Below the pieces are notes generated by a model. That model was given only the letters and a program-made list of their open reading frames with translations, ran no database searches and was not told where the DNA came from. DNA of 32,000 nt from an uncultured delta proteobacterium (lineage in GTDB: Bacteria > Desulfobacterota > Syntrophorhabdia > Syntrophorhabdales > WCHB1-27). Location: the NCBI GenBank assembly GCA_963816715.1, contig CAWFMJ010000027.1:43173-75172 (forward strand), in the 5' to 3' direction. This document shows, piece by piece, positions 1 to 29,347 of this stretch; position 1 is the first letter of the stretch, and each line of letters opens with the position of its first letter. The position numbers and the translations under genes were made by a program.

Positions 1-1
1 T

Positions 2-2551: not shown

Positions 2552-2629
2552 CGCCGGATAGGCCGGGTCATCATGGCAACGAACGCCCAACGCCTCCCGC
2601 CCCCGAGAAAGAAAAAAGAAACGAGAGAG

Positions 2630-6874: not shown

Positions 6875-6878
6875 GCAC

Positions 6879-6918
6879 GGGAGGACGGCCAACGTCCTCC
6901 CGTCTTTCTTTTTCTTTC
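6879..6918 (+). terminator. Rho-independent terminator of the molybdoenzyme gene
   Basis: GGGAGGACG (6879-6887), loop GCCAA, CGTCCTCCC (6893-6901), then T-rich tail GTCTTTCTTTTTCTTTC. It starts 5 nt after the stop codon. Confidence 0.7.
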
Positions 6919-6942
6919 GGCGGGAGGCGCCGGGCTAGGCGA

Positions 6943-6977
6943 TCCGGGATCGAGTTCAACCATGATCGATCCCGGAA
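6943..6977. repeat. 35-nt hairpin element, copy 1 (10-bp stem CCGGGATCGA/TCGATCCCGG, 12-nt loop)
   Basis: Read directly from the sequence. It is the reverse complement of 7230..7264 with one mismatch, located in the loop. Confidence 0.8.
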
Positions 6978-7229
6978 GTGGGCCATCATGGGTAAATTGT
7001 TCCGTTGGTCTTACCCGATGCCTGTATGTTCCGTCTACCGGGTAGGAACGGGACCTTCTTATGGCGCTAAAAGCTCCTGGGATTCCGGTTCCCCTATTGC
7101 AAGCTTCGCAGGCGCGGCGGCCGGGGCTCAACGCGCCCGTCGGCGAAACCACAACCGAGCACCCCTCTGACTCTCATCCGATGAAGGCCGGCGGCGCTAT
7201 CGCCGGCCTCCCGCTGACAAACTGGTACA

Positions 7230-7264
7230 TTCCGGGATCGATCATGGTAGAACTCGATCCCGGA
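7230..7264. repeat. 35-nt hairpin element, copy 2, inverted relative to copy 1
   Basis: The reverse complement of ccgggatcgatcatggtagaactcgatcccgg matches 6944..6975 at 31 of 32 positions. The flanking t and aa also match. Confidence 0.8.
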
Positions 7265-7270
7265 CGTCCC

Positions 7271-7405
7271 GGACTGCGGCTTGGTTGAAATCGTGAGGTC
7301 GGGATGCAATCTGAGCCTCGTAGCCCGCAGGCGTACTGAATGTACGACGGAGGGCACGGGGCGAAGAGGGCGCCCGAGATCGCGATTTCAACCAAGCCGC
7401 AGTCC
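7271..7405. repeat. 135-nt long hairpin: 23-bp perfect inverted repeat enclosing 89 nt that contain three small stem-loops
   Basis: GGACTGCGGCTTGGTTGAAATCG at 7271-7293 is the exact reverse complement of 7383-7405. Inner hairpins: gcct/aggc (7315-7332), cgtac/gtacg (7332-7346), gggcg/cgccc (7359-7375). Confidence 0.75.
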
Positions 7406-8247: not shown

Positions 8248-10857
8248 TCAGGTTGGATTTGACGCGTCATTTTCCCATCGCTCCCACATCCCCCATAGCG
8301 CCGTCTCGAGATGGCGGGCAAAGCGTGGGGCGTCGAAGAGAGGGGAGGCGAGAACCCGGGCGCGCATCGATGACCTCAGCTCGGCCAAACGAGTCAGGTC
8401 ATCGATGCAGGAAACGGCTTTCCTCACATACTCCTCGTCGCTGTCCGCTATCCATTCCGAAAGTCCCGCATTGTGGGCGATGCTTTCGCCTAGGTGCGAA
8501 AGAAAGCGGTCCCCCCGCCGAACAACGGCAGGAATTCCCATCCACAGCCCTTCGACGCTCGTGGTCCCGCCGGGATAGGGAAAGGGACTCAGGATGACGT
8601 CAACGCGATGGTAGGCTTCGAGCATCTGCGGCCGCAGCGAGTAACCTTCGAGGAGAAGCCGGTCGACGGAGACGCCGCAGGCTGCAAAGCGCTCGACCAG
8701 GGCGTCGCGGACGGTGAAATCGTTAAGCTGTTTGGCCTTCAGAAAGAGCCGCGAACGGGGCGTCGCCTCGAGAATCTTCGCCCACAGCGAGATAAGTGGG
8801 GCGTTGATCTTGGCGAGGTTGTTGAAGCTGCCGAAGGTGAAGACACCCGAAGAAAGCGCAGGCAGCGGTCCGACATCAGGAGAAACATCGGGCGGGGCGA
8901 AGCAAAGGTACGTTTCCGGCAAACGCCATACTGCCTCCGTGAAATGGCCCTCTTCTCCGGGGGGCGTCACCCGGGGATCGCCGAGAATGTAGTCCATCGC
9001 CGCAAGGCCCGTAGAGGCGAAGTAGCCGGGCCAGGTCGCCTGGACGGGCGCCGGTCTTCGGACAAACAAAGGCAATCTGTTCTTGGCGGTGTGGCCGGAG
9101 CAGTCGAGGAGCAGATGGACGCCGTCCGCGTGGATCGTCCCCGCAGCCTCTTTATCGTTCAAGCCGCCGAGCAATTTCCAGGAGGAGAAATACGGTTTTA
9201 TGCGGGCGGTCAGCTCATCCTCCAGCGGGTCGACGGGATAGGCGATCAGTTCCATGCGCGACCGGTCAATCTCGGCGAGAGCCCTTTCAAGGATGTAGCC
9301 GACGGGATGACTGTGGAAGTCTCCCGAGACGAGTCCCACACGGAGGCGTTTCGGCCGTCGGGCGCACAGCCAGGAGGAAAAAGGCGTCGTTTTCTTCCCC
9401 GCAACCTCTCCGTACCTTCTCGCTTCATTCAAATACTCCCGAGGCGGTAGGTCCGGAACGTAGCCCAGGGCGAACAGCAGATTGCTGCGACAGTCGAGGT
9501 AATCCGGCTTGATGGAGAGAGCGCGGCGGTAGCTGGCCACCGCTTCATCGAACCGGCCCTGTTCCCTGAGCGCATTGCCCAGATTGCTGTGGGCCCCGGC
9601 AAAATCCGGCTTGATGGAGAGAGCTTGCCGGTAGCAGCTTTCGGCCTCGGACAAACGACCCTGGTCCCAGAGGTCGACGCCCAGATTGTTGTACGTTCCG
9701 GCGGAATCGGGTTTGATGGAGAGGACGCGGCGATGGCACGCTTCGGCTTCGGGCAAGCGACCGCAGCTCCATAAGATGACCCCCAGGCTGTTGAGCGCTT
9801 CGACGTATTCCGGTTTGACGGCAAGAGCGCGGCGAAGGCAGGCCTCGGCTTCGACCGGCCGGCCGCGTTCCATGAAAAGGCTTCCCAGATTGTTGTACGC
9901 CTCGGCGAAATCCGGCTTAATCGAAAGGGCCTGCGTCAAAGAGGCTGCGGCCTCGGATAAACGGCCTTGACCGCGAAGAACCACGCCCAGGTTGTTATAT
10001 GCTTCAGCATAGTCCGGCTTGATCGAAAGCGCCTGCCGGTAATAGCCTTCCGCTTCCGGCGCACGGCCTTGCCTTTGAAGAACCATGCCGAGGTTCGTCA
10101 GTGTTTCGACATGATCCGGTTTGATCAAAAGAAACCGGCGGCAAACCTCTTCCGCCTCCACGAGTCGTCCCTGGTCGCGGAGGACGATTCCTAAATTGCT
10201 GAACGCTTCGATGTATTCCGGCTGAAGCAAAAGCGCTCGGCGCAGACATGCTTCGGCTTCGGACAACTGACCCCGGTCTCGCAGAACAACGCTCAGGTTG
10301 TTGTACGCTTCCCCGAAATCAGGCCTGATCGCAACCGCGCGGCTCAGGCAGGCCTCGGCCTCCGTGAGACGGCCGAGATCCCGGAGGATGACGCCGAGGT
10401 TGTTGTGCGCCTGGGCATAATCGGGCTTGATCGAGAGTGCCTGACGTTGACAGGCCTCTGCTTCCGTCAGGCGGCCTAAATCCCGCAACAGACTCCCCAA
10501 GTTGCTGTGCGCTTCAGCATAATCAGGCCTGATCGCGACGGCTTCACGATAGCAGCTTTCCGCTTCCGCACGACGGCCCTGCTCCCTCAACGCGTTGCCC
10601 AAATTGTTCCGCGCTTCCGGCGAGTCCGGTCTGATGGCGAGAGCCCGGCGAAAGCAGGCCTCGGCCTCGGCGAACCGGTGTTGGTTCCGCAAAACGACAG
10701 CCAAGTCGTTGCACGCCTCGAAACAATCCGGATCGATGTCGAGGAGTTGACGTAAACCCGCTTCAGCCTGAGAAAACCGGCTGGTTCTCCCGGAAACGTC
10801 TTGGGAGTCGTGCTTCGTCCCGTCGGGCGCCTGCTTCTCCAAATGCCGCTGTTTCAT
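8248..10857 (-). CDS. TPR-repeat protein with C-terminal SPINDLY/O-GlcNAc-transferase-like (GT41) domain
   Basis: 869 aa. About 13 consecutive 34-aa TPR units (consensus AEACxRRALSIKPDxAEAxNNLGxxLRDxGRL). The C-terminal ~400 aa resemble GT41 (VGLVSGDFHSHPVG, FGSFNNLAKI, DTFPYPGGTT-like SPFPYPGGTTS). Confidence 0.85.
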   Translation of the reverse strand: MKQRHLEKQAPDGTKHDSQDVSGRTSRFSQAEAGLRQLLDIDPDCFEACNDLAVVLRNQHRFAEAEACFRRALAIRPDSPEARNNLGNALREQGRRAEAESCYREAVAIRPDYAEAHSNLGSLLRDLGRLTEAEACQRQALSIKPDYAQAHNNLGVILRDLGRLTEAEACLSRAVAIRPDFGEAYNNLSVVLRDRGQLSEAEACLRRALLLQPEYIEAFSNLGIVLRDQGRLVEAEEVCRRFLLIKPDHVETLTNLGMVLQRQGRAPEAEGYYRQALSIKPDYAEAYNNLGVVLRGQGRLSEAAASLTQALSIKPDFAEAYNNLGSLFMERGRPVEAEACLRRALAVKPEYVEALNSLGVILWSCGRLPEAEACHRRVLSIKPDSAGTYNNLGVDLWDQGRLSEAESCYRQALSIKPDFAGAHSNLGNALREQGRFDEAVASYRRALSIKPDYLDCRSNLLFALGYVPDLPPREYLNEARRYGEVAGKKTTPFSSWLCARRPKRLRVGLVSGDFHSHPVGYILERALAEIDRSRMELIAYPVDPLEDELTARIKPYFSSWKLLGGLNDKEAAGTIHADGVHLLLDCSGHTAKNRLPLFVRRPAPVQATWPGYFASTGLAAMDYILGDPRVTPPGEEGHFTEAVWRLPETYLCFAPPDVSPDVGPLPALSSGVFTFGSFNNLAKINAPLISLWAKILEATPRSRLFLKAKQLNDFTVRDALVERFAACGVSVDRLLLEGYSLRPQMLEAYHRVDVILSPFPYPGGTTSVEGLWMGIPAVVRRGDRFLSHLGESIAHNAGLSEWIADSDEEYVRKAVSCIDDLTRLAELRSSMRARVLASPLFDAPRFARHLETALWGMWERWENDASNPT
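9440..10780 (-). repeat. Intragenic 102-nt periodicity from about 13 TPR units
   Basis: The recurring KPD/RPD-x-AEA-x-NNLG codon blocks are seen 13 times in the translation. Confidence 0.8.
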
Positions 10858-14506: not shown

Positions 14507-15388
14507 CTATTTTTTGCTTCCCTCCGTTCCTCCCGATTGGCGGCCCATCTTGCTCAAGTCCAGAAATGGGACGGCGCCGCCGGAGACTTGGGGCAAGGCG
14601 CCGTTCCATTTCTCTATGCCTTTGTACTGCACGAGGATGGGGCTGATCGAGTGCGACAGGGCATCATTGGCCTTCGCCTGCCCCTGGGCTACCACGAGAA
14701 TTGATTCGGCCTCGCCTTTTGCCGTGGCAACCTTTTGCTGGGCCTCGACATCGCGCTGGGCCAGGACCTGTTTCTGGGTTTCCACCTGCTGTTGGGCCAC
14801 CTGTTTGGCCTCGATAGCGCCTTCATATTCGGGAGAGAAACGGATGCTGGCAAAGTAAATGTCGTCGACGATGATGTGGTATCTCGACAGGTTATCCCCT
14901 AATTTTGTCATCGCCCTTCTCCGGATCTCCTCCCTCTTGGGAAGAATCTCCCCGATCGGGTAGGTCGGCACTACTTCCTTGACGAAGTCGTTGAAGGCCG
15001 GGTCGATCACCTTGTCCGCGAAGTCGAGTCCGACTTTCTGGTAAAGATCGTTGACATACGACGGATCGATGTGAAAGTTCATCATTCCCGTCATTTTCAC
15101 CATCTGGTACTCTTTGGAAGAGGCATCGATTTCCTTGAAGGGATGCGGCTGCACCTTTACATCGACCTTGATGACGCTTTCGGCAAGGGGCGTTTTGAAG
15201 TTGAGGCCCTCTCCCATGATCCTCCTCTCTACGCTCCCCCACAAAAGCACCACGCCCCTGTGGCCGGCCGGAACGATCACAAACGTACCCCAAGCAATGA
15301 TCAGGATGATGAGGACCACAACCAGCATTCCAATAGTGCGCAGGTTCGGGAATCTGAATTCAGCGACATCTTCGTCTTTTTCCGGCAT
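14507..15388 (-). CDS. SPFH/band-7 (prohibitin family) membrane protein
   Basis: N-terminal TM helix (IGMLVVVLIILIIAWGTFVIV) followed by PAGHRGVVLLWG...NFKTPL and an Ala/Gln-rich coiled C-terminus. I prefer the ATG at 15388 (AAGGAGA SD 7 nt upstream) over the ORF-track start at 15430. Confidence 0.85.
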   Translation of the reverse strand: MPEKDEDVAEFRFPNLRTIGMLVVVLIILIIAWGTFVIVPAGHRGVVLLWGSVERRIMGEGLNFKTPLAESVIKVDVKVQPHPFKEIDASSKEYQMVKMTGMMNFHIDPSYVNDLYQKVGLDFADKVIDPAFNDFVKEVVPTYPIGEILPKREEIRRRAMTKLGDNLSRYHIIVDDIYFASIRFSPEYEGAIEAKQVAQQQVETQKQVLAQRDVEAQQKVATAKGEAESILVVAQGQAKANDALSHSISPILVQYKGIEKWNGALPQVSGGAVPFLDLSKMGRQSGGTEGSKK

Positions 15389-15726
15389 CGTTCGTTCTCC
15401 TTGTCGGGCATCCTGCCCGAAATGACGCAACTGCCTCAGAGCTAAAAAGCCGGGCTTCCCAAAGGGCTATCCTTAGGCATCTCGGCCCTCTTCTCAGAGG
15501 GTTTGCCCTTTTCTGACTCACCGTTCACCCTGAGTCTATCAAATACGGCGCCCTTGTCAAGCATCTCATTAAAGTCATTCGGGTATAAATGCCTTGACGG
15601 CGGTAGAGTCTTCGTGGGGCGCGCCAGGCAAGCCTACCGACACAGCGCATGGATTCTGAACAACAGAAGGTGCTACAATGAAGCGGTCTGGCTTCATTGG
15701 CCTTCCCGAAACCCGCGGAGGAGTTT

Positions 15727-16824
15727 TTGACACGACGCAGTTTTATGATGAACCTGCTCGCCTGGGCCAAAATGATCGCTTTGGCGGGTCTTTTCCCAGG
15801 CGCCTTTCTCCGGGTTGTCCGCGCGTCGGAGAGGTCGGAGCCAGTCAGCGCCGGGGCCGAAGGTCTGAGTCTCCGGGAGATCGCGCGACAGAAGATTCAT
15901 CATGGGCACGGCCGTTTCAAGAACCCCTTCGGCAAAACCGCCTCCGGGAGCCCTTGGGAACTGATAAAGTGGAAAGTTCTTTCGGTGAATCGGTTCAAGT
16001 CTCAATACGTTCAAGAGCGCGTTTCACCCGTTTCTCCGGATTGGAAAGCCATCGACGGCAACAGGGGACTCTCCGCGACGTTTCTCAAACACGCCGGCGT
16101 CCTGATCAAGGACCTGGACGACCACATCCTGGTCGATCCCATCTTCTGGAGCGTCTCACGGTACGTCAAGGACTTCACGCCCCTTGCCTTCGACGTCAAG
16201 AAACTGCCCGCGCCGCAGCACATCCTCGTGACCCATGGTCACTACGATCACCTGGACGTTCCGACCCTTTCTTCCTTCAGGAAAGACACCCACGTGATAA
16301 CGCCCCTTGGATACGATGGCGTCTTTGGCAGCCTTGGAATGAACCGACGCACCCGGCTCGACTGGTTCGATTCTTTTAAAGAGGATGGACGGGAAATCAT
16401 GCTGCTTCCGTGCAACCACTGGACCATGAGAAACCCGCTGGAAGGGCCTAACCGGTCTCTCTGGGGATCATACCTGATAAAGACCGCTGCCGGCCCCACG
16501 ATCTATGTCTCCGGCGACACGGCCTGCTTTCATGGGTTTTACGAAATCGGAAAGGAATTCGCCATAGATCTGGCGATCATCAATCTGGGAGCCTATGAGC
16601 CCCGTTGGATGATGGCTGCTCATCACATGAATCCGGCCGAGACGGTGAGGGCTTTCAAAGAACTAGGCGCCAAGAGACTCATGATTGTTCATTGGGGGAC
16701 ATTTCGCCTTGGGGACGAACCCGTCTATCTGCCGCCGATCGAGCTACAACGGGAACTAAAAAAAGAAGGCCTTTTGTCCCGCTTCGTGTCGCTCGAACAC
16801 GGAAGAACCCTCTTTCTGAAGTGA
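15727..16824 (+). CDS. Tat-exported MBL-fold hydrolase (NAPE-PLD / Zn-dependent hydrolase-like)
   Basis: HILVTHGHYDHLD motif. The ORF is open from 15697 (TTG). I prefer the TTG at 15727 because GGAGGAG at 15717-15723 precedes it. That start gives MTRRSFMMNLLAWAKMIALAGLFPGAFLRVVRA, a twin-arginine signal. Confidence 0.8.
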   Translation: MTRRSFMMNLLAWAKMIALAGLFPGAFLRVVRASERSEPVSAGAEGLSLREIARQKIHHGHGRFKNPFGKTASGSPWELIKWKVLSVNRFKSQYVQERVSPVSPDWKAIDGNRGLSATFLKHAGVLIKDLDDHILVDPIFWSVSRYVKDFTPLAFDVKKLPAPQHILVTHGHYDHLDVPTLSSFRKDTHVITPLGYDGVFGSLGMNRRTRLDWFDSFKEDGREIMLLPCNHWTMRNPLEGPNRSLWGSYLIKTAAGPTIYVSGDTACFHGFYEIGKEFAIDLAIINLGAYEPRWMMAAHHMNPAETVRAFKELGAKRLMIVHWGTFRLGDEPVYLPPIELQRELKKEGLLSRFVSLEHGRTLFLK

Positions 16825-16919
16825 CGCTTCGCCGGTCGGCATCGTCGTCGCGCACCGTTGGGCCTCCCGGTCTTTCGATTCTCCTTAGTCGCAGCCCGGA
16901 CCTTTTTGCGCCATTTGGC

Positions 16920-16960
16920 TTGTTTTTTGCAAAATTTAGTGCTATAGTACTGTATACAGT
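16920..16960 (+). promoter_or_regulatory. Putative extended -10 sigma70 promoter followed directly by a 12-bp perfect palindrome
   Basis: TTGTTT (16920-16925), 17-nt spacer ending in TGc, TATAGT (16943-16948), then ACTGTATACAGT (16949-16960). A second GTATAC lies at 16965-16970. Confidence 0.4.
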
Positions 16961-17216
16961 TAGCGTATACGAGAAAGAGCATCGCCGTCGTCGATTTGCG
17001 CATAGGAAGCGGGCCGTCTTCGAGTAAAAACCTGTTGATTTTCTGATTCCCCCTCGCTCAGTCAAAGCTCCGTTTTCCGTTACCATTCGCGACTCGACAC
17101 TGTCTTTCAAAGCGATATTGCAGCCGGATGGACGCACAACCAACGGAGCGCGAAATCGCCGCTTTGGGGGCCGGCGCCGTGAGGTCGATGACGGCCAGGA
17201 AAGGGAGGAACCTTCT

Positions 17217-19490: not shown

Positions 19491-19860
19491 GATGTACCCC
19501 CTGTCGCGTTAGCTCACTCGGCGCTGAGAACGCGACACTCATAATTCTATCATTCCACGACCGGCTCGACAACAACAAGCGACTGCCGGAAAAGCCCTTC
19601 GGATAATTATCCCCATACCAGATGGTTCTCGTAAAAGGAAATGCTCACGGGAAAGAACGATATGTGGCATAAAAGACAATAATTCGTTTCGTATCTCGAA
19701 GGTGCTGCCGGAACATGGCCCGGAAATTGACTTCCCGGCCCTCCGGTAGCGGTACGATAGTTGCATGGAAGCAGTCGGATGGATTAAGCCTCGTTCGCAA
19801 AAAGAGGCTGGAAAACGAGCAAACAATACTGCGCGTACTCAAGAACAGGGAGGACAAAAC

Positions 19861-21429
19861 ATGGGAATAGGAACTTATCAGGCGTACAAAGAGCGGCTAT
19901 TGAAGATGAAGCCGAACGTGTATATCAACGGCAAGAAGGTCGACCGATCGGGCGACTGGATCGACGGCGGCTGCTATGTGATGAAGCAAACCTACGATTA
20001 TGCCAATGATCCCGAATACCAGGATGTCTGTACGGCCGTATCTCATCTGACCGGCGAGAAGATCAACCGTTTCACCCACGTTCACCGGTCGAAGGAAGAC
20101 CTGCTCAACAAGCAGATGATGACGAGGCTGCTCTGTCATCGCGTCGGCGGCTGCACCCAGCGTTGCATGGGCACGGACGCAATCAATGCCCTCGACGTTG
20201 TCACCTATGACATAGACCAGGCGTGCGGCACCAAATACCACGAACGTTTCGAAAAGTATCTCCTGTATTCTCAAAAATATGACCTTGTCGCAAACTGCGC
20301 ACAGACAGACGTCAAAGGGTCCCGCAACCCCAAGTACAAGAGAGCCCATATGCAGCCCGATCCGGACCAGTTTGTCCACATAGTGAAGACAAACGTCGAC
20401 GGCATCGGCCTCGATGGAAAACCATGCAAGGGCATCATCGTCCGCGGCGCGAAGATCTGCAACTCCAACGCCCCCTATGTCGATGAAATAATCGTTAACC
20501 CGACCAAGCTCATGGGCAGAGGCGACGAGGGCTACGCCGTATCCTTTGCGTTGCCGGCCGACTGGGACGGCTTGAAGCTGATGGCCCTTCCGGGGAAACA
20601 TCACAAGAGGACGCACATCACGGCCCCCTTTTCCAATGTCGGCGACGTGGAATCCCTGACTATCTTCGACGATGTATTCGTGCCCGAGGAAAGGGTCTTC
20701 ATGAATGGTTACGATCATCCCGACGTGGTTCAGTACGCAGGCTATCTTGCCCTCATGTTTGCCCATTTTCACCGTCATTCCTATACCGGCTGCAAGACCG
20801 CCGTCTCCGAGGTTATCGCGGCCCAGGCAGCCCTCGTTGCCGACGTGAACGACATCGCGCAGGAACACCACGTCCGTGAAAAACTCTGCGAGATCATCAG
20901 CACCGCGGAACTGGTGTTCGCTGCCGGGCAGGCCTCAGCTTTTCGTGCGGTGGAGTTTCCCAATGGTTCATGGGTGCCGGACGAGGTGCTCACTAACGCG
21001 GGACGAAGGCTTGCCGGCCACAAGATCTACGAGGAATATGCAACACTGGCAGACCTGACGGGCGGCATTTGCGCGTCGCTTCCCACGGAAGAAAGCTACT
21101 ACGCTCCGGAAACGGCCGAGCTGTGCAACAAGTACATCATACGAAACCCCGCATATACCGCCGAAGAGACCCACAGAGTCATGCGCATGATGGAAAACAA
21201 GCTCTGCGATCCTTTTGAGGGCGCTCAGGCGGTCGCAGGCATGCACGGCGGCGGCTCTCCCCTCATGGAGACCATCACCATGATGAGCCGGTATGACCTC
21301 GAGCCGCTGAAGAACATCGCGAAGTTCCTCGCCGGTTTCAAGGATGCGAAGCTCCCCCGGTACGAACGTCCCACCGCGACGCCGAGGGCTATGCTCGACA
21401 AGTTTAAGAAGCTGGAAAAGAAGGACTAA
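19861..21429 (+). CDS. 4-hydroxybutyryl-CoA dehydratase / vinylacetyl-CoA isomerase family (HpaB-fold) protein
   Basis: ATG at 19861 with GGGAGGA SD; the ORF-track start at 19765 is unlikely. Blocks parallel to Clostridium AbfD: GGCTQRCMGTDA, YAVSFALP, IFDDVFVPEERVF, FAHFHRHSYTGCK, MHGGGSP. Confidence 0.85.
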   Translation: MGIGTYQAYKERLLKMKPNVYINGKKVDRSGDWIDGGCYVMKQTYDYANDPEYQDVCTAVSHLTGEKINRFTHVHRSKEDLLNKQMMTRLLCHRVGGCTQRCMGTDAINALDVVTYDIDQACGTKYHERFEKYLLYSQKYDLVANCAQTDVKGSRNPKYKRAHMQPDPDQFVHIVKTNVDGIGLDGKPCKGIIVRGAKICNSNAPYVDEIIVNPTKLMGRGDEGYAVSFALPADWDGLKLMALPGKHHKRTHITAPFSNVGDVESLTIFDDVFVPEERVFMNGYDHPDVVQYAGYLALMFAHFHRHSYTGCKTAVSEVIAAQAALVADVNDIAQEHHVREKLCEIISTAELVFAAGQASAFRAVEFPNGSWVPDEVLTNAGRRLAGHKIYEEYATLADLTGGICASLPTEESYYAPETAELCNKYIIRNPAYTAEETHRVMRMMENKLCDPFEGAQAVAGMHGGGSPLMETITMMSRYDLEPLKNIAKFLAGFKDAKLPRYERPTATPRAMLDKFKKLEKKD

Positions 21430-21587: not shown

Positions 21588-22157
21588 CTAGAGTCGTGGT
21601 TTGCAGATGATTTCTCTGATTTTTGTGTTGAAGAATGTATGCGTATTGGCGGCTGTCAAGACCAAGGCGGCGTCCGCTCCTCCCGCAGAGCCTGCGATCG
21701 CGACGACGTCCTCATTTGTTCTGATTAAACCTGCATCCGCGGCCATACAGGTGATTTCACAGGAGACTTTCACGCCTTGTCCGAATAGTCTGAGGACATG
21801 GGCGATAATCTCGTCAACCTGAATTGTGTTGAATCTGTTGTTTACGGCCCTGCCCAGACCGCCGAAGGAGTGGGCCGCGTGGAGTATCCTGCCGCCGTTC
21901 CGCTCGATCGCAGTGCGGTTTTCAGCCAGAAGCATGGTTGTGTTCGGTTCCTTGAATCCGACCACCCCAGCCACTACGATCAGGTTGACGCCTTTGAACA
22001 TTTCTGAGGCTTTAGCCCCGGTAAGACCGCTGTAGGAGGCTACGATGATATTCTTGACGCCCAGTTGTTCGGCTCTCTCCTTCGCGAGTTTAAGGGTCGC
22101 GTCGGTGTTCCTGCTTCCGGGATGCTCGAAATAAGTGGTTTTACACGCTACATCCAT
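21588..22157 (-). CDS. Stand-alone pyruvate kinase alpha/beta (C-terminal)-domain-like protein
   Basis: 189 aa: TTYFEHPGSRNTDATLKLAKERAEQLGVKNIIVASYSG...FGQGVKVSCEITCMAADAGLI...VAIAGSAGGADAALV...IREIICKP. This is typical of the PK_C-only family. GAAGGA SD. The start overlaps the preceding mini-ORF by 10 nt. Confidence 0.7.
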   Translation of the reverse strand: MDVACKTTYFEHPGSRNTDATLKLAKERAEQLGVKNIIVASYSGLTGAKASEMFKGVNLIVVAGVVGFKEPNTTMLLAENRTAIERNGGRILHAAHSFGGLGRAVNNRFNTIQVDEIIAHVLRLFGQGVKVSCEITCMAADAGLIRTNEDVVAIAGSAGGADAALVLTAANTHTFFNTKIREIICKPRL

Positions 22158-22291
22158 GTGTTGATCCTTCTGATGTTCTGTATGGCCTCCATCGACTTCT
22201 GTGTGCTTCCCGCGACGTAGAGGCGCGGCACGCAGCGCTGCCGGCCGCTGAGTTTCGCCGCCTTCTCGAACTCTTTGCCGCTTTCTTTCAT
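22148..22291 (-). pseudogene. 47-codon KaiB N-terminal fragment (truncated second kaiB of module B), possibly still translated
   Basis: Not in the ORF track because it is under 60 aa. My translation: [47 protein letters not shown]. It aligns to the ERAAK...[22 protein letters not shown] region of the 24520..24936 KaiB. Its ATG overlaps the kaiB stop as ATGA. Confidence 0.5.
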
Positions 22292-22617
22292 GCCGTCCCC
22301 TTGCCCTTCACGCGCAGGTCGAGTCCCACCAGGACGCGCTCCGTGTTCGACAGATCGCCGATGATCTTGCGCACCGGCTCGGGGAGCTTCCTCACGAGGG
22401 TGGGAATGGCGAGGATCTGGTCGCCCTTGGCGAGGGTGGGGTTTTCTAAAAGGTCGATCACCTCGATGCGATACTTCCCTTTCAGGTGCTCCTCGCAGAG
22501 CTTCTTCAGGTTAGAAAAGGCAACGAGGGACTTCGGCGTTTGACCGGCGACGTAGAGGCGAAGCTCCCAGAACTCTTCGCCTGAGGCTGCTTTCCTGATC
22601 ACGCGCTCCTCCTTCAT
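22288..22617 (-). CDS. kaiB: KaiB (module B)
   Basis: [83 protein letters not shown] is the thioredoxin-like KaiB signature. ATGA overlap with the kaiC stop. Confidence 0.92.
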
Positions 22618-24317
22618 GTCGTCCCGTCAGCCTGCCGGCGGCGAGCCATCTCCTTGCGCTGCTCGTTGAGCGCTGATCGGCGGCGCTCCACCTGCTGGGC
22701 GAGTTTGCGCATCTCTTCCTCGTCCGCCTCGATGCCTGCCCGTATCGCGGCGATCTGCGCTTCCGCCAAAAGCCGCTTCCGCTCCAGCTCCCGCTTCCTG
22801 CGGTCCGTTTCTTCTTTCAGGTCCTCCTCTGCCATGCGCTCTTTCGCCTCCTGGGCGGCGCGGGCAGAACCGGTAAGCACGCCTGAAGGGCCGAGGTAGA
22901 CGTCCTGGAGCTCGATGCCAGAATCGGTGAGGAGGAACTCGCGTATCTGGTTGGAGTGCGCAATGCCGCGGGCTTTCAGGATCATGAGGCCCCGGTTGCG
23001 CTCGCCGCTCGACTCCAGGTCGCGCAGCACCATCCACGCGTCCATGAGCGAGGAGATGCCCACCTCTGTTCGTTCGAGACTTTCGCCTCCGGCAGTGAGG
23101 CTCGTGAACAGGGCGGTTATGCGCTCCGCTTTTAAGTAATCGATGAGACGAGTGAGCATCGATTTCACTTCCTGCTCGTTGCCGACGCTGATCAGGTTGG
23201 TGATGGGATCGAGGATGACGACGCTCGGCTTGAAGGCCTCGACGGTCCGGTGAATGTGGGCGAGGTGCGTCTCGAGCCCGAAGACCGTCGGGCGGGAGGC
23301 TTCAAAAAGAAGAAGGCCTTTGTCGATGCAGGGCTGGAGGTCGATGCCGATCGACCGCATGTTGCGGACGATCTGGCTTTGGGATTCCTCGAAGGCGAAG
23401 TAGACGGTCTTCTCTTTGCGCTCGCAGGCCGATTTCGCGAAGGCGGCGGCGACGCTCGATTTGCCCGTGCCCGCCGTGCCGGACAGGAGGATGGTGCTTC
23501 CCCGGTAGTGCCCCGCGCCTGCGAACATTGCATCGAGCCGGGGGATGCCGGTGGAGATGCGTTCTTTCGAGGCCGTGTGTTTCAGGCCGAGCGAGGTGAT
23601 AGGCAGCACGCTGATGCCGCGTTCCCCGATGAGGAAAGGGTACTCGTTGGCGCCGTGGGAGGAGCCGCGGTATTTCATGACGCGCAGGCGCCGGGTCGAG
23701 AGCTGCTCGGCGACGCGGTGGTCGAGGATGATCACGCAGTCGGCGACGTACTCTTCGAGACCGTGGCGGGTTACCTTATCGACGCCCCGCTCGCCGGTGA
23801 TGACGGCAGTGACCCCTTTCTGCTTCAGCCAGCGGAAGAGGCGCCGCAGCTCGGCCCGCAGGATCGCCTCGTTGGGGAGGCTGGCGAAGAGCACTTCGAT
23901 GGTGTCGAGGACGACGCGCTTTGCCTTGATCGAATCGATGGCGTGGCCGAGCCTGACGAAGAGGCCTTCCAGGTCGTATTCGCCCGTCTCCTCAATCTCG
24001 CTCCGCTCGATGTAGACGTAGTCGATGGAAATCTTCTTCTCTTTGGTCAGCTTCGCCAGATCGAACCCTAAGGACTTGACGTTCTTGGTCAAGTCTTCGG
24101 CGGTCTCCTCGAAGGCCATGAAGACGCCCGGCTCATTGAAGGCTTCGGCGCCGTGGACGAGGAACTCCATCGCCAAAAGCGTCTTGCCCGCGCCCGGTCC
24201 GCCGGCCACGAGGGTGGGGCGGCCTTTCGGCAGACCGCCGCCGGTGATCTCGTCAAGGCCTTTGACGCCTGTGGGCGCCTTCGGCAGCGCGCCGGGGTCT
24301 GAGAGCTTCCTTGCCAT
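22614..24317 (-). CDS. kaiC: KaiC (module B), double RecA-like domain with coiled-coil-like C-terminal extension
   Basis: 567 aa. CI has Walker A GGPGAGKT and AFEET. CII has Walker A GTAGTGKS and [22 protein letters not shown] lies at the phosphosite position. The tail [76 protein letters not shown] follows. AAGGAGGAG SD. Confidence 0.93.
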
Positions 24318-24466
24318 GCCTCAACTCCTCCTTGCCGCGGCGATGTCGACCGGAAAGAAATGGCGCGCTTGCCTGTTTCTGCGGACCGGTCTCGAAGGTT
24401 CGTTCACCTCGTCCTTCCCGGAAAAGCAATTAAGCATGAAGATGGATGCAATAACCGACACTCATT

Positions 24467-24495
24467 ATTCTACGACTGTTGATTTTGGCTGTAAA
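24467..24495 (-). promoter_or_regulatory. Putative sigma70 promoter of kai module B
   Basis: Minus strand: TTTACA (24495-24490), 17-nt spacer, TAGAAT (24472-24467), about 150 nt upstream of the kaiC-B ATG. Confidence 0.45.
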
Positions 24496-24519
24496 GCGAT
24501 AAAAGCTGCGCGCGCGTCT

Positions 24520-24936
24520 TCAGACGCCCTCTCGGGCGTCCTTCAGCGCTCCGGCCTGGGGCTTCGGCTGCAGATCGAGCCCTATGAGGATGGTCTCGAT
24601 ATCGGTCATACCGCCGATGAACCGGCGCAAAGGCGGCGGCAGCTTCTTTATCAGCGTAGGCACGGCAACGATTTGTTCCCCCCTGGCGAGGACCGGCTGC
24701 TGATAAATGTCGATCACCTGCAGTTTGTAGCGTCCCTTCAGGTGCTCCTCGCAGATGCGCTTTATGTTGGTGATCGCCTGGTTCGATTTCGCCGACGTCC
24801 CCGCAATGTACAGCTTGAGCACATAGTTTTGCTCCTTGACCCCCTTGGCGGCCCGTTCGGACAGCTCTGGCCCGTTCCCCGGTCCTTCCGTCGCGGACTT
24901 CGGATCAACGCTGTCTTTTCGGCTTCGCTTTGTCAT
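24520..24936 (-). CDS. Divergent KaiB-like protein with N-terminal extension (module A, second kaiB)
   Basis: 138 aa. Core [84 protein letters not shown]. The ATG at 24936 overlaps the upstream kaiB by 32 nt. An alternative GTG at 24822 is preceded by AAGGAG. Confidence 0.8.
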
Positions 24937-25261
24937 TCGTCACTTCCAGGGTTAATGGCCGGGGTTTCAGATCGAGACCCACGAGCACGCGCTCCGTGTT
25001 CGACAGGTCTCCTATGACCTTTCTTATGGGGGTCGGCAACTTTCGTACAAGGGTCGGGATGGCGACGATCTGATCGCCCTTCGCCAGAAGCGGCTTTGCC
25101 AGGAGATCGACTACCTCGATGCGGTATCGACCGGCAAGGTTTTCCTCGCAGATCCTCTTGAGGTTCTCGAGTGCGGTCCACGATTTCGGCATCGATCCCG
25201 TCACGTAAAGGCGAAGCTCATAGATCGGGGCCGGCTGTTCCTCTTTTTTTGCGGCCCTCAT
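24905..25261 (-). CDS. kaiB: KaiB (module A)
   Basis: [87 protein letters not shown] overlap with the kaiC-A stop. Confidence 0.92.
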
Positions 25262-26973
25262 GCTTCTGCCTTCGCATCCGCCTGACGGCGGCGCGCCATC
25301 CCCTCCTGTTGCTCCTGGATCGCTCTCGCGCGGTTCTCATCCTGCCGGGCTATCCTCCTCATCTCCTCAACGTCGGCCTCGATGTTTGCCCGTATCGCTG
25401 CTATCTGCGATTCGGCCACGGCCCGTTTCCGCTCTAAATCCCGCCGCTTGCAATCGAGATCATCCTTCGACGCCGCCTCGGCCGCCCTCTCTTTCGCCTC
25501 TTGCTGTGACCGGGCCGAGCCTGTCAGGACCCCTGACGGGCCGAGGTAGACATCCTGGAGCGCAATGCCCTGGTCGGTGAGGATGAACTCCCTGATCTGA
25601 TTCGAGTGGGCCATGCCGCGAGACTTCAGGATCCACAAACCCCGGTTTCGTTCGCCGCTTGACTCGATGTCGCGGAGGACCATCCAGGTATCCATGAGCG
25701 AGGAGATGCCCGCCTCCGTCTGCTCGAGGCTGTCGCCTCCCCGTGTGAGGCTCGTGAAGAGCGTCGTGATGTGCTCGGTCTTCAGGTAATCGATGAGGCG
25801 CGTCAGCATCGACTTCACCTCGTGCTCGCTGCCTACGGTGATGAAATTGGTGATCGGATCGATGAGGACGACGCTCGGTTTGAAGTCTTCGATGGCCCGG
25901 TGTATGCTGGTAAGGTGCGTCTCGAGACCGAACGCCGTTGGGCGGGACGCGTCGAAGCGCAGCAGGCCTTTCCCGACGGAAGGCTTGAGATCGACGCCGA
26001 TCGATTCCATGTTGCGGACGATCTGGCTCTGAGACTCCTCGAAGGCGAAGTAAAGCGTTTTTTCTCCCCGGTCGCACGCCGATTTGGCAAAGGTCGCCGC
26101 CACGCTCGATTTTCCCGTACCTGCCGTCCCCGAAAGGAGTATGGTGCTTCCCCGGTAAAACCCGTCGCCTGCAAACATCGCATCGAGGCGGGGGATGCCC
26201 GTCGATATTCGTTCACGTGAGGCCACGTGCTTCAGACCGAGGGAGGTAACGGGCAGGACGCTGATGCCCTTGTCGCCGATAAGGAAGGGATACTCGTTCG
26301 TGCCGTGGGACGACCCCCGGTACTTGACGATCCGGAGCCGCCTCGTGGAAAGTTGCTCGGTGACGCGATGGTCGAGGACGATCACGCAGTCGGCGACGTA
26401 TTCCTCCAGACCCTGGCGGGTCAGCGTCTCCGTCCCCCGCTCGCCGGTAATGACCGTTGTGACCCCCTTATCCTTGAGCCAGCGAAAGAGGCGCCGCAAT
26501 TCGGCCCTCAGGATCGCTTCGTTGCGCAAACTCGAGAAGAGTACCTCTATCGTGTCGAGGGCCACCCGCTTTGCCTTGATGGAATCGATGGCGTGACCGA
26601 GCCTCACGAAAAGTCCGTCGAGGTTGTATTCCCCCGTCTCCTCGATCTCGCTCCGCTCGATGTAGACGTAATCGACCGACATTTTTTTTTCGCGGCCGAG
26701 CTTCTCAAGATCGAAGCCGAGGGACCTGACGTTCCTGGTCAGCTCCTCTGCCGTCTCTTCGAAGGCTATGAAAACGCCCGGCTCGTTGTAGTCCTGCGCG
26801 CCGTGAACGATAAATTCCATAGCCATAAGAGTCTTGCCCGAGCCCGCTCCGCCGGCGACGAGCGTAGGCCGGCCCTTCGGCAACCCCCCGTTCGTGATCT
26901 CGTCGAGACCCCTGACGCCCGTCAATGCTTTCTCAAGAGCTCTTGAATCGCTTGACGCCTGTCGTGCCGCCAT
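25258..26973 (-). CDS. kaiC: KaiC (module A), double RecA-like domain with coiled-coil-like C-terminal extension
   Basis: I prefer the ATG at 26973 (AAAGGAGG 7 nt upstream); the ORF track extends to a TTG at 27003. CI has GGAGSGKT and AFEET. CII has GTAGTGKS and [22 protein letters not shown] is present. The tail is [75 protein letters not shown]. Confidence 0.93.
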
Positions 26974-27163
26974 TGCGCAACCTCCTTTTTGCAAACCGCG
27001 CAAGATGGTTTAGAGCTCAATGCTTTCGCGGCCCCATAGCCGCACACCGCCGCAACGCCGGGACGGTTTCATCCACGAACAGAGAATTCCTGAGAGGTCT
27101 ATCCCGATCGGTTTGGCCGGCCCGCCGCCATGATACGCCGCAAAGCGGCGGGAGAAGCATTTT

Positions 27164-27204
27164 GGCGTGCGAAATCCATACTCTTGACATGGATTTCGCA
27201 CGCC
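27164..27204. promoter_or_regulatory. Perfect 16-bp inverted repeat with 9-nt spacer in the kaiC-A leader (operator or RNA hairpin)
   Basis: GGCGTGCGAAATCCAT (27164-27179), actcttgac, ATGGATTTCGCACGCC (27189-27204). It lies about 27-67 nt downstream of the predicted TSS. No U-tract follows on the minus strand. Confidence 0.6.
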
Positions 27205-27237
27205 ATGGCTTCCTACTAGATCATCCTCGTAATCACC

Positions 27238-27266
27238 ATTGTACAGCCTCAATAGAGACGAGTCAA
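27238..27266 (-). promoter_or_regulatory. Putative sigma70 promoter of kai module A
   Basis: Minus strand: TTGACT (27266-27261), 17-nt spacer, TACAAT (27243-27238). It sits immediately downstream of the PocR-LuxR stop and about 260 nt upstream of the kaiC-A ATG. Confidence 0.55.
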
Positions 27267-27292
27267 TAGGATAATAAGGACAAACAGGATTT

Positions 27293-28252
27293 TCAGGTTA
27301 TGGATATGAGGTGGCTGCGCAGATTTGTCTTGTGGTCAAGGACCAATTTCTTTCGGATGTTGTAACGGTGATACTCTACCGCTCTCAGGGATACGCCCAA
27401 AAGCTCTGCAATCTCGGCGGTAGCCCGGCCCTCCTTCAACAGCAAGGCCACCGCGAGCTCCCTTGCCGTAAGGCCAAGGGTCTGCATCTTTCGCATGACG
27501 GGGGACATTATATCCTTCAGACCGGACTCGAGCATGTCGACGGCGCTCGCCTGCTCGCGAGACAGCCGGCTCTTCTTCAACTTCTCCAGATAGGGAAGGA
27601 CGCGTTCTTTCATATTGGCGGTGATATCTTCCTCGAGCTGGCTTCTTTCATTTTCCTTTTTTCCCGGGGCTGCTCGCGGCGGCGTACCGACCTTCTCCGG
27701 AAAGCGGGAGCCGATGGCCCGTCCCTTCTGAGGCGTCGCATCGGCGAGCCCTTGCACGACCGTGCCGCCCAGGTCGGCAAGAAGCGAGAAACATTGGAGA
27801 AATGCGCGGACTTTTGATTCATCCACTACGGCGGCCTTCGATAGCGCTTCGGCAAGGGCCGACTCGCTGAGGCCGAATCGCCCCTCCTTGTGTTTGAATG
27901 AACCCATATCGGGAGGATCCGTGAAAAACGGGCCGGCCACCAGGGCGCCGACGCGCTCCCCGAGGACGGCAACGGGCGCCGACGCACAGGCCAGGCCGTG
28001 CCCGCATTTTTCAATCGAGTACTTTGGGCGGGCTTTCTTCTTGAGGGCAACGCCCCCATCGCCTCGTTCGCACTTTTGCACCGCCTGCCGGTCCGGCCCG
28101 CAAAGGCGACGAATATCCGGCCCATCCGATTTCGCGAGGATCGAGCCCTCGGGGTCAACAATGGAAAGCGGAATGCCGGTCGCCTTATAGAAAGTGTTCG
28201 CGAACGTCTTTAGCCTGGCGGCGTCGACGAGGTGGGAAAGCTTGTGTTCCAT
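27293..28252 (-). CDS. PocR-sensor / LuxR-family (GerE HTH) transcriptional regulator
   Basis: N-terminal PocR-like region (FYKATGIPLSIVDPEGSIL...IRRLCG...VQKCERGD...IEKCGHGLACASAPVAVLGERVGALVAGPFF). C-terminal LTARELAVALLLKEGRATAEIAELLGVSLRAVEYHRYNIRKKL. Confidence 0.85.
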   Translation of the reverse strand: MEHKLSHLVDAARLKTFANTFYKATGIPLSIVDPEGSILAKSDGPDIRRLCGPDRQAVQKCERGDGGVALKKKARPKYSIEKCGHGLACASAPVAVLGERVGALVAGPFFTDPPDMGSFKHKEGRFGLSESALAEALSKAAVVDESKVRAFLQCFSLLADLGGTVVQGLADATPQKGRAIGSRFPEKVGTPPRAAPGKKENERSQLEEDITANMKERVLPYLEKLKKSRLSREQASAVDMLESGLKDIMSPVMRKMQTLGLTARELAVALLLKEGRATAEIAELLGVSLRAVEYHRYNIRKKLVLDHKTNLRSHLISIT

Positions 28253-28354
28253 AGCAAAGGGTTCTCTGCCTCTTCCCTATAAGATTATCCTCATTGCGAG
28301 GCATTTTCCTTCTATAAATATACACTCATACTACTATGCTTTTACACGTATGTT

Positions 28355-29347
28355 TTATCGTATGGACGACAGGTGGGATCGCAGATTCATCTTCTTCCGG
28401 TTCAGTCCGAGTTTCTTTCTGATCTTGTATCGGTGGGTCTCGACCGCCCGTGGGGAAACGCCCAGCAATTCCGCGATCTGCTTCGTGGTTTTGCCGGCTT
28501 TCAAATAGGCCACGACTTCGATCTCCTTGGGAGTGAGATCGAAAGCTTGTATTCGCCTGATGATAGGCGACGTTATCTCCTTCAGGTTAGCCTCGATGAT
28601 CTCGACGCTGCTGGCCTGGGCAGTATCCAGCCGGCTCTTTTTCAACCTCTCCACGTAGGGGAGGATCAGCTCCTTCACGTTTGAAAGGATATTCTCTTCA
28701 AGCTCGCTCTTGTCCGCCTCCCTCTGCTTCAGCAGGACGCGGAGCGCCGTATTGGTCTCTTCGAGGGTCCGCGACTTTATATCGAGGGTTTCCTCTGCCC
28801 ATTTTCTCGCTGAAATGTCGGTCGCCACGATGCAACTGTTGCGCGCGTCGTGAAGCTCGCACCCGCCCGCAAGGTGGATATAAAGTTCTTTGCCGGACGC
28901 CGTCTTGAGAGGGATCTCCTGCAAGGATTTCTCTACGTGGCTTCGGTTTATAAACGCGGTAAAGGTGTCCCGACAGCCGGCGGGCACGAGGTCCAGGAAC
29001 GAGGAGCCGACGAGCTGTTCCATGGGAACGCCGATCATCTCTGAAAAAAAAGCGTTGCAGTACAAGATGATATACTCGCCGTTCAGGGTCACCGCGCCGG
29101 AGGCCATCGTCTCGACGATGCTGCGGTAAGGAAAATCAGGGCCCTCCAGGGTGTATACCTGAGGCCTTTCGCCCTCGATGACCAGTGCATCGACATCGCC
29201 GTTCCGGATCGCTCCGATGGTCTGCTCCGCCTCTTCGAGCCGCGCCCGTAACTCCTTATTCTGCTCCAGAAGACGTTCCAGGCCGACATCGCTGCTCGTC
29301 GTGGTCTCCTTATTCACCGCGCACCCCCCGCCGTCCTTGGCATGCAT
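28355..29347 (-). CDS. PAS-sensor / LuxR-family (GerE HTH) transcriptional regulator
   Basis: Coiled N-terminus, then a PAS-like core (YRSIVETMASGAVTLNGEYIILYCNAFFSEMIGVPMEQLVGSSFLDLV...IVATDISARK). C-terminal LTPKEIEVVAYLKAGKTTKQIAELLGVSPRAVETHRYKIRKKL. The start is either ATG 29347 or GTG 29317. Confidence 0.85.
   Translation of the reverse strand: MHAKDGGGCAVNKETTTSSDVGLERLLEQNKELRARLEEAEQTIGAIRNGDVDALVIEGERPQVYTLEGPDFPYRSIVETMASGAVTLNGEYIILYCNAFFSEMIGVPMEQLVGSSFLDLVPAGCRDTFTAFINRSHVEKSLQEIPLKTASGKELYIHLAGGCELHDARNSCIVATDISARKWAEETLDIKSRTLEETNTALRVLLKQREADKSELEENILSNVKELILPYVERLKKSRLDTAQASSVEIIEANLKEITSPIIRRIQAFDLTPKEIEVVAYLKAGKTTKQIAELLGVSPRAVETHRYKIRKKLGLNRKKMNLRSHLSSIR

Follow-up and report, generated by a model that had tools for sequence, protein, structure and literature searches.

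A LuxR-type regulator with a Kai-operon PAS domain beside tandem KaiC2-type modules: a candidate output route for KaiA-free Kai proteins in an uncultured delta proteobacterium

In a 32,000-nucleotide stretch of the genome of an uncultured delta proteobacterium (contig CAWFMJ010000027.1; the window hereafter, all positions being those of the whole 32-kb stretch), a locus on the minus strand at 21588-29347 encodes two Kai modules in tandem (A and B) and, upstream of them, two regulators of the LuxR type. We propose that the modules are two KaiBC phospho-switches driven by ATP and ADP, and that one of the regulators, in which a PAS sensor is joined to a LuxR-type DNA-binding domain (PAS-LuxR), is a one-component regulator coupled to the Kai proteins that would feed back on module A. 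We regard the chances of this proposal as evenly balanced. Its main supports are the family to which the PAS domain belongs, the conserved association of the regulator with kai genes and a palindromic box at the module A promoter. The locus had been singled out by an initial annotation made from the sequence without database searches, and the coordinates it gave for the nine open reading frames (ORFs) all agree with the ORF listing. The features of the locus are as follows (aa, amino acids; nt, nucleotides; HTH, helix-turn-helix).

28355..29347 (-): PAS-LuxR; Pfam PAS and GerE, with the PAS family at residues 24-198 and the GerE/LuxR HTH at residues 271-317
27293..28252 (-): PocR-LuxR; Pfam PocR (89.8 bits) and GerE (40.1 bits)
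27238..27266 (-): module A promoter candidate, sigma-70-like TTGACT-17-TACAAT (consensus scan, 10/12 matches)
27214..27231 (-): palindromic box TACGAG-GATGAT-CTAGTA, candidate operator for LuxR-type regulators
27163..27205 (-): inverted repeat in the leader of kaiC_A, two perfect 17-nt arms around a spacer of 9 nt (repeat search)
25258..26973 (-): kaiC_A, 571 aa; Pfam KaiC twice, NCBIfam PRK09302 736 bits, PDB 8DBA E 5e-190
24905..25261 (-): kaiB_A1, first-position KaiB; Pfam KaiB 89.8 bits
24520..24936 (-): kaiB'_A2, second-position KaiB family, 138 aa; Pfam KaiB 89.6 bits
24467..24495 (-): module B promoter candidate, sigma-70-like TTTACA-17-TAGAAT (consensus scan, 10/12 matches)
22614..24317 (-): kaiC_B, 567 aa; Pfam KaiC twice, NCBIfam PRK09302 737 bits, PDB 8DBA E 1e-189
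22288..22617 (-): kaiB_B1, first-position KaiB of the common type; Pfam KaiB 97.3 bits
22148..22291 (-): 47-codon 5' remnant of kaiB', LYVAGSTQKSMEAIQNIRRI; assigned with the second-position profile, without a Pfam match
21588..22157 (-): PK_C-domain protein, 189 aa; Pfam PK_C 37.1 bits

The strongest argument for a link between PAS-LuxR and the Kai proteins comes from its sensor domain. We compared the window with the kai loci of 80 GTDB species representatives from many phyla, including archaea (60-67% identity among the matches listed). In 72 of these 80 listed loci, the gene immediately following kaiB or kaiB' (a second KaiB gene, discussed below) has an N-terminus that matches residues 24-190 of PAS-LuxR at 30-42% identity. 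A profile was built from 63 N-terminal domains of such kaiB-downstream genes, with the focal clade excluded, and residues 24-198 of PAS-LuxR score 168.7 bits against it (E 2e-50, positions 9-185 of 187). The median over all domain matches in the training proteins is 193.5 bits, and PAS domains of other kinds within these 1.6 Mb of loci, that is, in the DNA flanking kai genes within which specificity was tested, reach at most 39 bits; the few partial matches at 62-85 bits are gene fragments or the N-terminal helix alone. An AlphaFold2 model of PAS-LuxR places a helix at residues 16-48, a confident PAS core at 84-177, a further helix at 179-237 and the HTH at 273-328. Both regulators exceed the Pfam gathering threshold of 23.5 for the GerE HTH (PAS-LuxR at 49.6 bits), and neither matches Autoind_bind, the autoinducer-binding domain of quorum-sensing LuxR proteins in Pfam, their sensors being PAS and PocR.

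Of the 80 listed unrelated genomes, 65 have this Kai-operon PAS family in the gene that follows kaiB directly, where it is attached to a variety of outputs. About 47 of the 65 carriers are HisKA, HisKA_2 or HisKA_3 kinases. In L017, L036, L046 and L081 (Rhodoferax, Methylococcaceae and Lamprocystis) the domain is fused to GGDEF-EAL, an architecture like that of KidA; in L049, a deltaproteobacterial metagenome-assembled genome (MAG), it is fused to a sigma-54 activator; and in at least 10 loci, mostly Bacteroidota MAGs, it forms a stand-alone protein of about 235 aa (most of the following loci have this stand-alone form: L010, L019, L020, L025, L029, L037, L039, L050, L068 and L077). The GGDEF-EAL locus L046 also has a PocR domain. 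A PAS module that is kept beside kaiB while its outputs are swapped shows the pattern expected of a Kai-coupling domain, and PAS domains of KidA are known to bind fold-switched KaiB (PMC9478674). Because PAS-LuxR carries the sensor domain that is normally found on the Kai-operon kinase, it is a likelier Kai partner than an unrelated sensor would be; family membership, linkage and the KidA precedent together suggest that it may be physically coupled to the Kai proteins through this domain.

The window itself does not have the common order of kaiC, kaiB and a PAS histidine kinase (PAS/HK), as the next gene is kaiC_B after module A and the PK_C-like gene after module B. Pfam finds no HisKA or HATPase domain within 21588-29347. 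The sole histidine kinase in the window is a PocR-PAS-HisKA-HATPase-REC hybrid protein at 2-2551 (+), whose 5' end is cut by the window edge and whose PAS domain has no match to the Kai-operon PAS profile and belongs to another family. With this kinase and PocR-LuxR, PocR sensors recur among the signalling proteins of the host genome.

The association of PAS-LuxR with kai genes is conserved. Searches for its orthologs listed at least 29 close ones, more distant members being recovered by local profile searches, and in 12 of the 13 informative loci, the window included, the PAS-LuxR gene adjoins kai genes; eight of these loci were found from the LuxR side. The conservation of the LuxR neighborhood, on which the initial annotation had made its reading depend, is thus borne out. 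A PocR regulator lies beside PAS-LuxR in all the kai-adjacent loci except L088 and L096, and PocR-LuxR is absent from the 80 listed GTDB loci. The locus L087, with PAS-GerE, PocR-GerE, kaiC, kaiB and kaiB' and without a kinase, has the same layout as module A of the window. In L001 a PocR-GerE and a PAS-GerE gene are followed by an IS630-type transposase gene and then by two tandem kaiC modules, and in L085 PAS-GerE and PocR precede a kaiC broken by a frameshift and then a kaiB, with more kai genes around them. Adjacent kai genes were also found in L088, L089 and L090, which were reached from PAS-LuxR orthologs (L090 has two kaiB genes and no kaiC), and in L091, L094, L095, L096 and L098, which came from a metagenome scan. 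The one informative locus without adjacent kai genes is L097; three further contigs were too short. In L098 (333-2144) the PAS-LuxR ortholog is split by about 830 bp between PAS and HTH, possibly an insertion.

The third line of evidence is a palindrome at the promoter of module A. The box family has the consensus TACTAG-N6-CTAGTA, and the window copy, its single match in the 32 kb, lies directly downstream of the module A -10 element. When the region is aligned with L087, L085, L001 and L090, the -35, the -10 and the palindrome are conserved and the rest is not. Promoter and box precede the adjoining kai operon in 10 loci, the window and nine others: the exact form ACKAG-N6-CTWGT stands before the LuxR-adjacent kai operon in L001, L085, L087, L089, L090 and L091, and a form with one mismatch occupies the same intergenic position in L094, L095 and L098. 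In L089 and L095 the box faces divergently transcribed kai genes. No box is present upstream of kaiC_B, even with up to 2 mismatches allowed, nor is there one upstream of PAS-LuxR or between the two LuxR genes. The two regulators are 54% identical over the linker and HTH (the C-terminal 140 aa) and therefore plausibly recognize the same site. The TAC...GTA form of the inverted repeat resembles NarL/FixJ-type sites, a likeness that we use as a lead only.

Downstream of the conserved box, the kaiC_A leader holds the perfect 17-nt inverted repeat, with the arms TGGCGTGCGAAATCCAT and ATGGATTTCGCACGCCA. It is unique in the window, none of 100 shuffles gave 2 matches, and it is not present in the relatives. 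It was considered as a terminator or a riboswitch and rejected as either, as it has no T-tract, no Rfam match and no conservation in the relatives.

These observations could also be read in the opposite direction, and this is the alternative that survives best, although we consider it unlikely. PAS-LuxR and PocR-LuxR would then be input-side factors that sense a ligand or the redox state and switch kai transcription without touching the Kai proteins, and the PAS/HK output would be encoded elsewhere, for example beside a third KaiC. It is indeed the kai promoter at which the conserved box lies, PAS and PocR are both folds classically known to bind ligands, and PAS-LuxR orthologs have invariant cysteines. 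A third KaiC, moreover, appears to be encoded beyond the window on its source contig of 463,761 bp: this protein (P0020, 569 aa) is 76% identical to KaiC_A, 76-78% identical to KaiC_A and KaiC_B, and 88% identical to a KaiC2 of L001 whose gene precedes kaiB, kaiB' and a PAS/HK gene. Against such a role, one PAS family that follows kaiB in so many unrelated genomes, with so many outputs, fits a Kai-docking module better than a common ligand, and KidA provides a precedent for the binding of KaiB by PAS domains.

The proposal of a Kai-coupled regulator also depends on what kind of Kai proteins the window encodes. The two KaiCs had been described as complete double-domain proteins of 571 and 567 aa, and Pfam PF06745 indeed finds two stretches in each (378 and 372 bits). 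The catalytic motifs, said to be intact, are so in both: Walker A and the catalytic EE (AFEET in CI; GTAGTGKS with AFEES in CII), together with GISSLMD. For KaiC_A, an ATG preceded by AAGGAGG gives the 571 aa; a TTG start would give 581 aa. Both proteins pass the general KaiC model PRK09302 of NCBIfam (cut-off 408 bits) and fall short of the cyanobacterial KaiC equivalog TIGR02655 (348.7 and 347.6 bits; cut-off 546.25). Their best PDB match is the KaiC of Rhodobacter sphaeroides (KaiC_RS; 8DBA). The alignments span residues 13-563 of KaiC_A and 11-544 of KaiC_B and reach chain residues 554 and 537, respectively, the coil-deleted entry 8DB3 ending at 488. The two serines of GISSLMD align with the EE of the S413E/S414E KaiC_RS entry 8FWI, giving predicted phosphosites at S424/S425 in KaiC_A and S422/S423 in KaiC_B, and the coiled-coil tail of KaiC_A runs from about residue 498 to 571.

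Members of the KaiC2 subgroup are recognized by a pair of serines and by an extension of about 50 aa at the C-terminus (PMC5520375, PMC10076222). In KaiC_RS this extension is a coiled coil that joins two hexamers and permits autophosphorylation without KaiA, while KaiB speeds ATP hydrolysis by CI, and the system works as an hourglass driven by the ATP:ADP ratio (PMC10076222). That KaiC_A and KaiC_B are of this KaiC2/KaiC_RS type, the KaiA-independent hourglass type, is well supported by the match to 8DBA through the coiled coil, the Ser-Ser pair and the C-terminal extension, so that the earlier assignment to a KaiA-free KaiBC type is strengthened; dodecamer assembly and KaiA-independent autophosphorylation would be expected of both. 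In keeping with the statement that the window has no KaiA, SasA, CikA or RpaA-type gene, a Pfam scan of window ORFs gave no KaiA, SasA-like or CikA-like architecture, and RpaA is likewise absent from the window.

Each kaiC overlaps its kaiB by 4 nt (ATGA), as had been reported, and kaiB_B1 overlaps the remnant likewise by 4 nt. The additional divergent kaiB, which had been presented as a peculiarity of module A, turned out to be nothing of the kind: two KaiB ORFs follow kaiC on its own strand in 54 of the 80 listed unrelated loci (one in 21 loci and three in one), so that kaiC-kaiB-kaiB' is the usual operon. The two positions hold different families, as first-position KaiBs best match KaiB_B1 in 71 of 76 cases and second-position KaiBs best match KaiB_A2 in 50 of 54. 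KaiB_A1 scores 160 bits with the first-position profile and 131 with the second-position one, and KaiB_A2, which has an N-terminal extension of about 35 aa, 148.9 bits with the second-position profile and 129.6 with the first-position one. All three window KaiBs exceed the Pfam gathering threshold of 27 for the KaiB domain and stay below the NCBIfam cut-offs for the cyanobacterial KaiB equivalogs (110 and 145.3). The best PDB match of KaiB_A1 is KaiB_RS in the 8FWJ complex (E 2e-29). The G and D of the IGLDL motif, fold-switch residues that we assign from the Thermosynechococcus elongatus KaiB sequence, occur in all three and do not separate KaiB from KaiB'. The NCBIfam SasA model PRK09303 matches KaiB_A2 at E 1e-7 and KaiB_B1 at E 1e-3, with no match to KaiB_A1; there are hints that kaiB' may resemble the KaiB-like docking domain of SasA.

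The short ORF that ends module B had been taken for a remnant of the same extra kaiB. Pairwise comparison leaves this assignment ambiguous, the 47 aa being 39-43% identical to all three KaiBs. The second-position profile scores 32.5 bits and the first-position profile 25.3, a modest separation, and it is this comparison together with the position of the gene that supports the assignment to kaiB'. The KaiB homology breaks off near 22165, at the start of the PK_C-like gene. The PK_C-like protein is intact, since its homologs (1,121 representatives at E <=0.001) are stand-alone proteins of about 185-200 aa and align with it over the full length; a kaiB' remnant that runs into an intact gene start points to a deletion or rearrangement at about 22165. 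The initial annotation had placed this protein in the sensor and output context of the modules, and here it cannot be followed: a full-length, stand-alone protein, it has no homolog in the 81 kai loci searched with it and none in the 80 listed GTDB loci, it does not adjoin kai genes in any of 99 other loci, and we reject it as a Kai component. The PK_C-like gene is probably an adjacent gene outside the Kai system. Nor is its product identified as a pyruvate kinase, Pfam finding PK_C only and no barrel domain.

The paralogs had been judged by eye to be 75-80% identical, a good estimate. KaiC_A and KaiC_B share 78.7% identity as proteins, with a ratio of nonsynonymous to synonymous substitution rates (dN/dS) of 0.14 and a dS of about 1.0. 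Divergence is unevenly distributed: CI is 83% identical (dN/dS 0.10), CII 82% (0.12) and the coiled-coil tail, the most diverged part, 58% (0.38), the central heptads of the coil (ERKR..AE.QIAAIRA.IEAD.EEMR) being conserved between the two. KaiB_A1 and KaiB_B1 are 62-65% identical. An assembly duplicate was considered and is excluded by the divergence of the KaiCs, the modules sharing only 76.6% DNA identity. The modules are therefore not an artefact, and the view that they are old, diverged and under purifying selection stands; the other half of that view, a tandem duplication in situ, is not established. In a neighbor-joining KaiC tree A and B are sisters in 86 of 300 bootstraps (29%), and KaiC_B groups with P0002-5 and P0019 in 136 of 300, the third-copy KaiC group being recovered in 264 of 300. 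The locus L086 carries P0005, one of the KaiCs nearest KaiC_B, with a Kai-PAS kinase upstream and a peptidase gene downstream. The KaiB tree puts the two KaiBs in different sub-lineages, KaiB_A1 with the first KaiB of the LuxR-linked modules in L085 and L087, KaiB_B1 with the common kinase-linked type; and no alignment was obtained between the regions upstream of kaiC_A and kaiC_B. The pair may have arisen either by duplication in situ or by the juxtaposition of two module lineages.

This history bears on a second alternative, which we hold to be improbable, that the tandem has no joint function. Kai modules would multiply and decay through mobile elements and recombination, and module B would be a redundant copy that has lost its kaiB' and its output gene. 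The relatives do give grounds for such a view. The KaiCs of L085 and L089 are split and the KaiBs of L088 and L090 are orphans; the split or frameshifted kaiC genes and kaiC-less kaiB genes beside the LuxR pair are:

L085, 16879-18932
L089, 5162-6892
L090, 10298-11220
L088, 10492-10899

Transposases or integrases lie beside kai genes in L001, L085 and L087, a kaiC-kaiB-kaiB'-HK module is found among conjugation genes in L084, module B has its truncated kaiB', three KaiC copies appear on one contig, and a second KaiC within 10 kb occurs in none of the 80 listed unrelated genomes. To judge from these sequences, Kai clusters in the lineage of the window are in rapid flux, and such frameshifted KaiCs, orphan KaiBs and transposases make it a serious possibility that module B is redundant or decaying and not one of two coupled timers. 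On the other side, KaiC_B and KaiB_B1 are full-length with intact motifs, the dN/dS values of 0.10-0.12 in CI and CII are low, and module B is preceded by a promoter-like site of its own, its Shine-Dalgarno sequences being strong. L001 too has two complete tandem kaiC modules, each with a kinase.

In L084 a complete kaiC-kaiB-kaiB'-PAS/HK module and an orphan kaiB (1-7400 and 15300-17200) sit among TrbC, TraF, TraH and TraG conjugative-transfer genes and SLT, HU and SSB genes, which suggests that Kai modules may travel on integrative conjugative elements.

In the mechanism that we propose for the Kai-coupled regulator, the window holds two paralogous KaiC2-type modules of the form kaiC-kaiB-kaiB', each with its own promoter-like site. 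The KaiC hexamers would pair through the C-terminal coiled coil and autophosphorylate on the Ser-Ser pair without KaiA; as the ATP:ADP ratio falls, KaiB would return KaiC to the unphosphorylated state. On these expectations of hexamer pairing, KaiA-free autophosphorylation and a KaiB reset dependent on ATP:ADP, the KaiBC proteins would act as an hourglass driven by the environment, or as a switch that responds to the energy state, and not as a clock that runs freely. PAS-LuxR would read the Kai state, most likely by docking on KaiC-bound KaiB or KaiB', and would bind the TACTAG-N6-CTAGTA box at the module A promoter, which would provide both a direct output and feedback on kaiC_A-kaiB-kaiB'. 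PocR-LuxR probably binds the same box and would add a small-molecule input. It is the phylogenetic footprint that suggests this binding of the box and the control of module A. Module B, which has neither the box nor its own output gene and whose kaiB' is truncated, could be a separately regulated KaiC-KaiB pool that shares the regulator, or else a decaying copy.

The host is probably a Syntrophorhabdaceae-like, non-phototrophic, syntrophic anaerobe, as its best matches are to Syntrophorhabdaceae and it has aromatic-type oxidoreductase genes; for such a probably anaerobic host an energy-state or stress switch is likelier than a day-night timer. The initial annotation read the locus as a pair of KaiA-free hourglass timers, either coupled or tuned independently, for which the LuxR and PK-C proteins would form the context of sensing and output. 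This reading seems to us rather unlikely: both KaiCs are of the KaiC_RS hourglass type, and a coil at 58% identity, compared with 82-83% in CI and CII, could insulate or retune the two assemblies, but PK-C is not associated with kai genes, there is no sign of coupling between the modules, a daily ATP:ADP cycle is not expected in a probable syntrophic anaerobe, and with the central heptads of the coil conserved KaiC_A and KaiC_B might also cross-pair.

Several points weigh against a Kai-coupled PAS-LuxR that feeds back on module A. Three cysteines are invariant among the PAS-LuxR orthologs, and the PAS domain could sense a ligand or the redox state independently of the Kai proteins. The specificity of the Kai-operon PAS family was tested within kai-flanking DNA, and beyond it there may be members without linkage to kai. 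The structural model of PAS-LuxR is of moderate confidence (predicted local distance difference test score 68.8), and the position of the box after the -10 derives from consensus promoter scans. The clusters are unstable, frameshifted KaiCs or orphan KaiBs standing beside the LuxR pair in L085, L088, L089 and L090. Finally, any day-night role is doubtful in a non-phototrophic anaerobe.

Elsewhere in the window are an AhtL-like molybdopterin oxidoreductase gene (4160-6874, +), an HpaB-family enzyme gene (19765-21429, +) and a large gene for a tetratricopeptide repeat (TPR) protein with a GT41 glycosyltransferase (8248-10857, -). The AhtL-like and HpaB-family enzymes fit an anaerobic, aromatic-degrading host; no link between any of these three genes and the kai genes was seen.

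With the SasA-RpaA and CikA pathways of the cyanobacterial KaiABC clock the proposed system would share the concept that docking on KaiC or KaiB, dependent on the phosphorylation state, controls transcription. Those pathways are two-component phosphorelays, in which docking occurs through a KaiB-like domain (SasA) or a pseudo-receiver domain (CikA); in the window, by comparison, one protein would combine docking, through its PAS domain, with DNA binding, through its LuxR HTH. The multi-PAS GGDEF-EAL protein KidA of Synechococcus elongatus (PMC9478674) can be likened to PAS-LuxR, by its description, as a PAS protein tied to KaiB, but it modulates the KaiABC oscillator and its output is cyclic di-GMP (c-di-GMP) and not DNA binding.

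The nearest characterized relative is the KaiBC system of R. sphaeroides (8DBA, 8FWI and 8FWJ; PMC10076222), which shares the double-domain KaiC, the Ser-Ser pair, the coiled coil, the absence of KaiA and a kaiB directly after kaiC, its KaiB_RS being the nearest PDB match of KaiB_A1. The window differs from it in its two tandem modules, apparent third KaiC, kaiB' and upstream LuxR genes, in having no PAS histidine kinase after kaiB and in its inferred non-phototrophic host. Rhodopseudomonas palustris and R. sphaeroides have a kaiC-kaiB-PAS/HK operon (PMC4794148); there too kaiC is followed by kaiB, and the partner starts with the same kind of N-terminal PAS domain by the 63-operon profile, whereas in the window that PAS domain is fused to a LuxR HTH, encoded upstream and paired with PocR-LuxR. 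Several KaiC/KaiB pairs in one organism are also known from Synechocystis, which holds KaiAB1C1, KaiB2C2 and KaiA3B3C3 (PMC11372060, PMC5520375); those pairs belong to different subgroups and are dispersed, whereas the copies here share the KaiC2 type and 76-79% identity, and two of them lie side by side. The KaiC stress systems of Legionella pneumophila and Pseudomonas likewise involve a non-circadian, KaiA-free KaiC in a non-phototroph, and the KaiC of Pseudomonas physically interacts with its cognate kinase and response regulator (PMC5520375; bioRxiv 10.1101/2022.01.26.477890). The output in these systems is a kinase with a response regulator, no LuxR-type one-component partner or tandem modules having been described.

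The KaiBC core of the window is thus of a known kind, KaiC2/KaiC_RS-type. The arrangement around it had not been recognized as a characterized system, and we too found no description of a Kai-LuxR arrangement in the literature searched. Relative to that literature, the tandem KaiC2 modules, a LuxR regulator whose PAS domain, that of the kinase, would replace the partner kinase, and a putative conserved operator at the kai promoter appear to be new. Nor did the same literature yield any description of kaiB' and of this specific PAS family as regular parts of KaiC2 operons, which our survey indicates them to be across bacteria and some archaea.

The output route of KaiA-free KaiBC systems outside the cyanobacteria is largely unknown, and the work on R. 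sphaeroides solved the core mechanism and not the output. The locus described here offers a compact candidate for such an output, the single PAS-LuxR protein, along with a candidate DNA target, the 18-bp palindrome conserved in 10 loci, and a natural contrast between a module with the box and a module without it; its interest lies mainly in this hypothesis about the output, which can be tested, and less in the duplication as such. We suggest, tentatively and as somewhat less than probable, that the helix-plus-PAS module is a general Kai-docking domain with interchangeable outputs, and that its fusion to a LuxR domain in this probable Syntrophorhabdaceae lineage would lead, within one protein, from the phosphorylation state of KaiC to the operator at the kai promoter and make a Kai transcription-translation feedback loop outside the cyanobacteria. 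Should KaiB or KaiC prove to be a docking partner of the PAS domain, a single coupling mechanism would serve the kinase, c-di-GMP, sigma-54 and LuxR outputs of the family.

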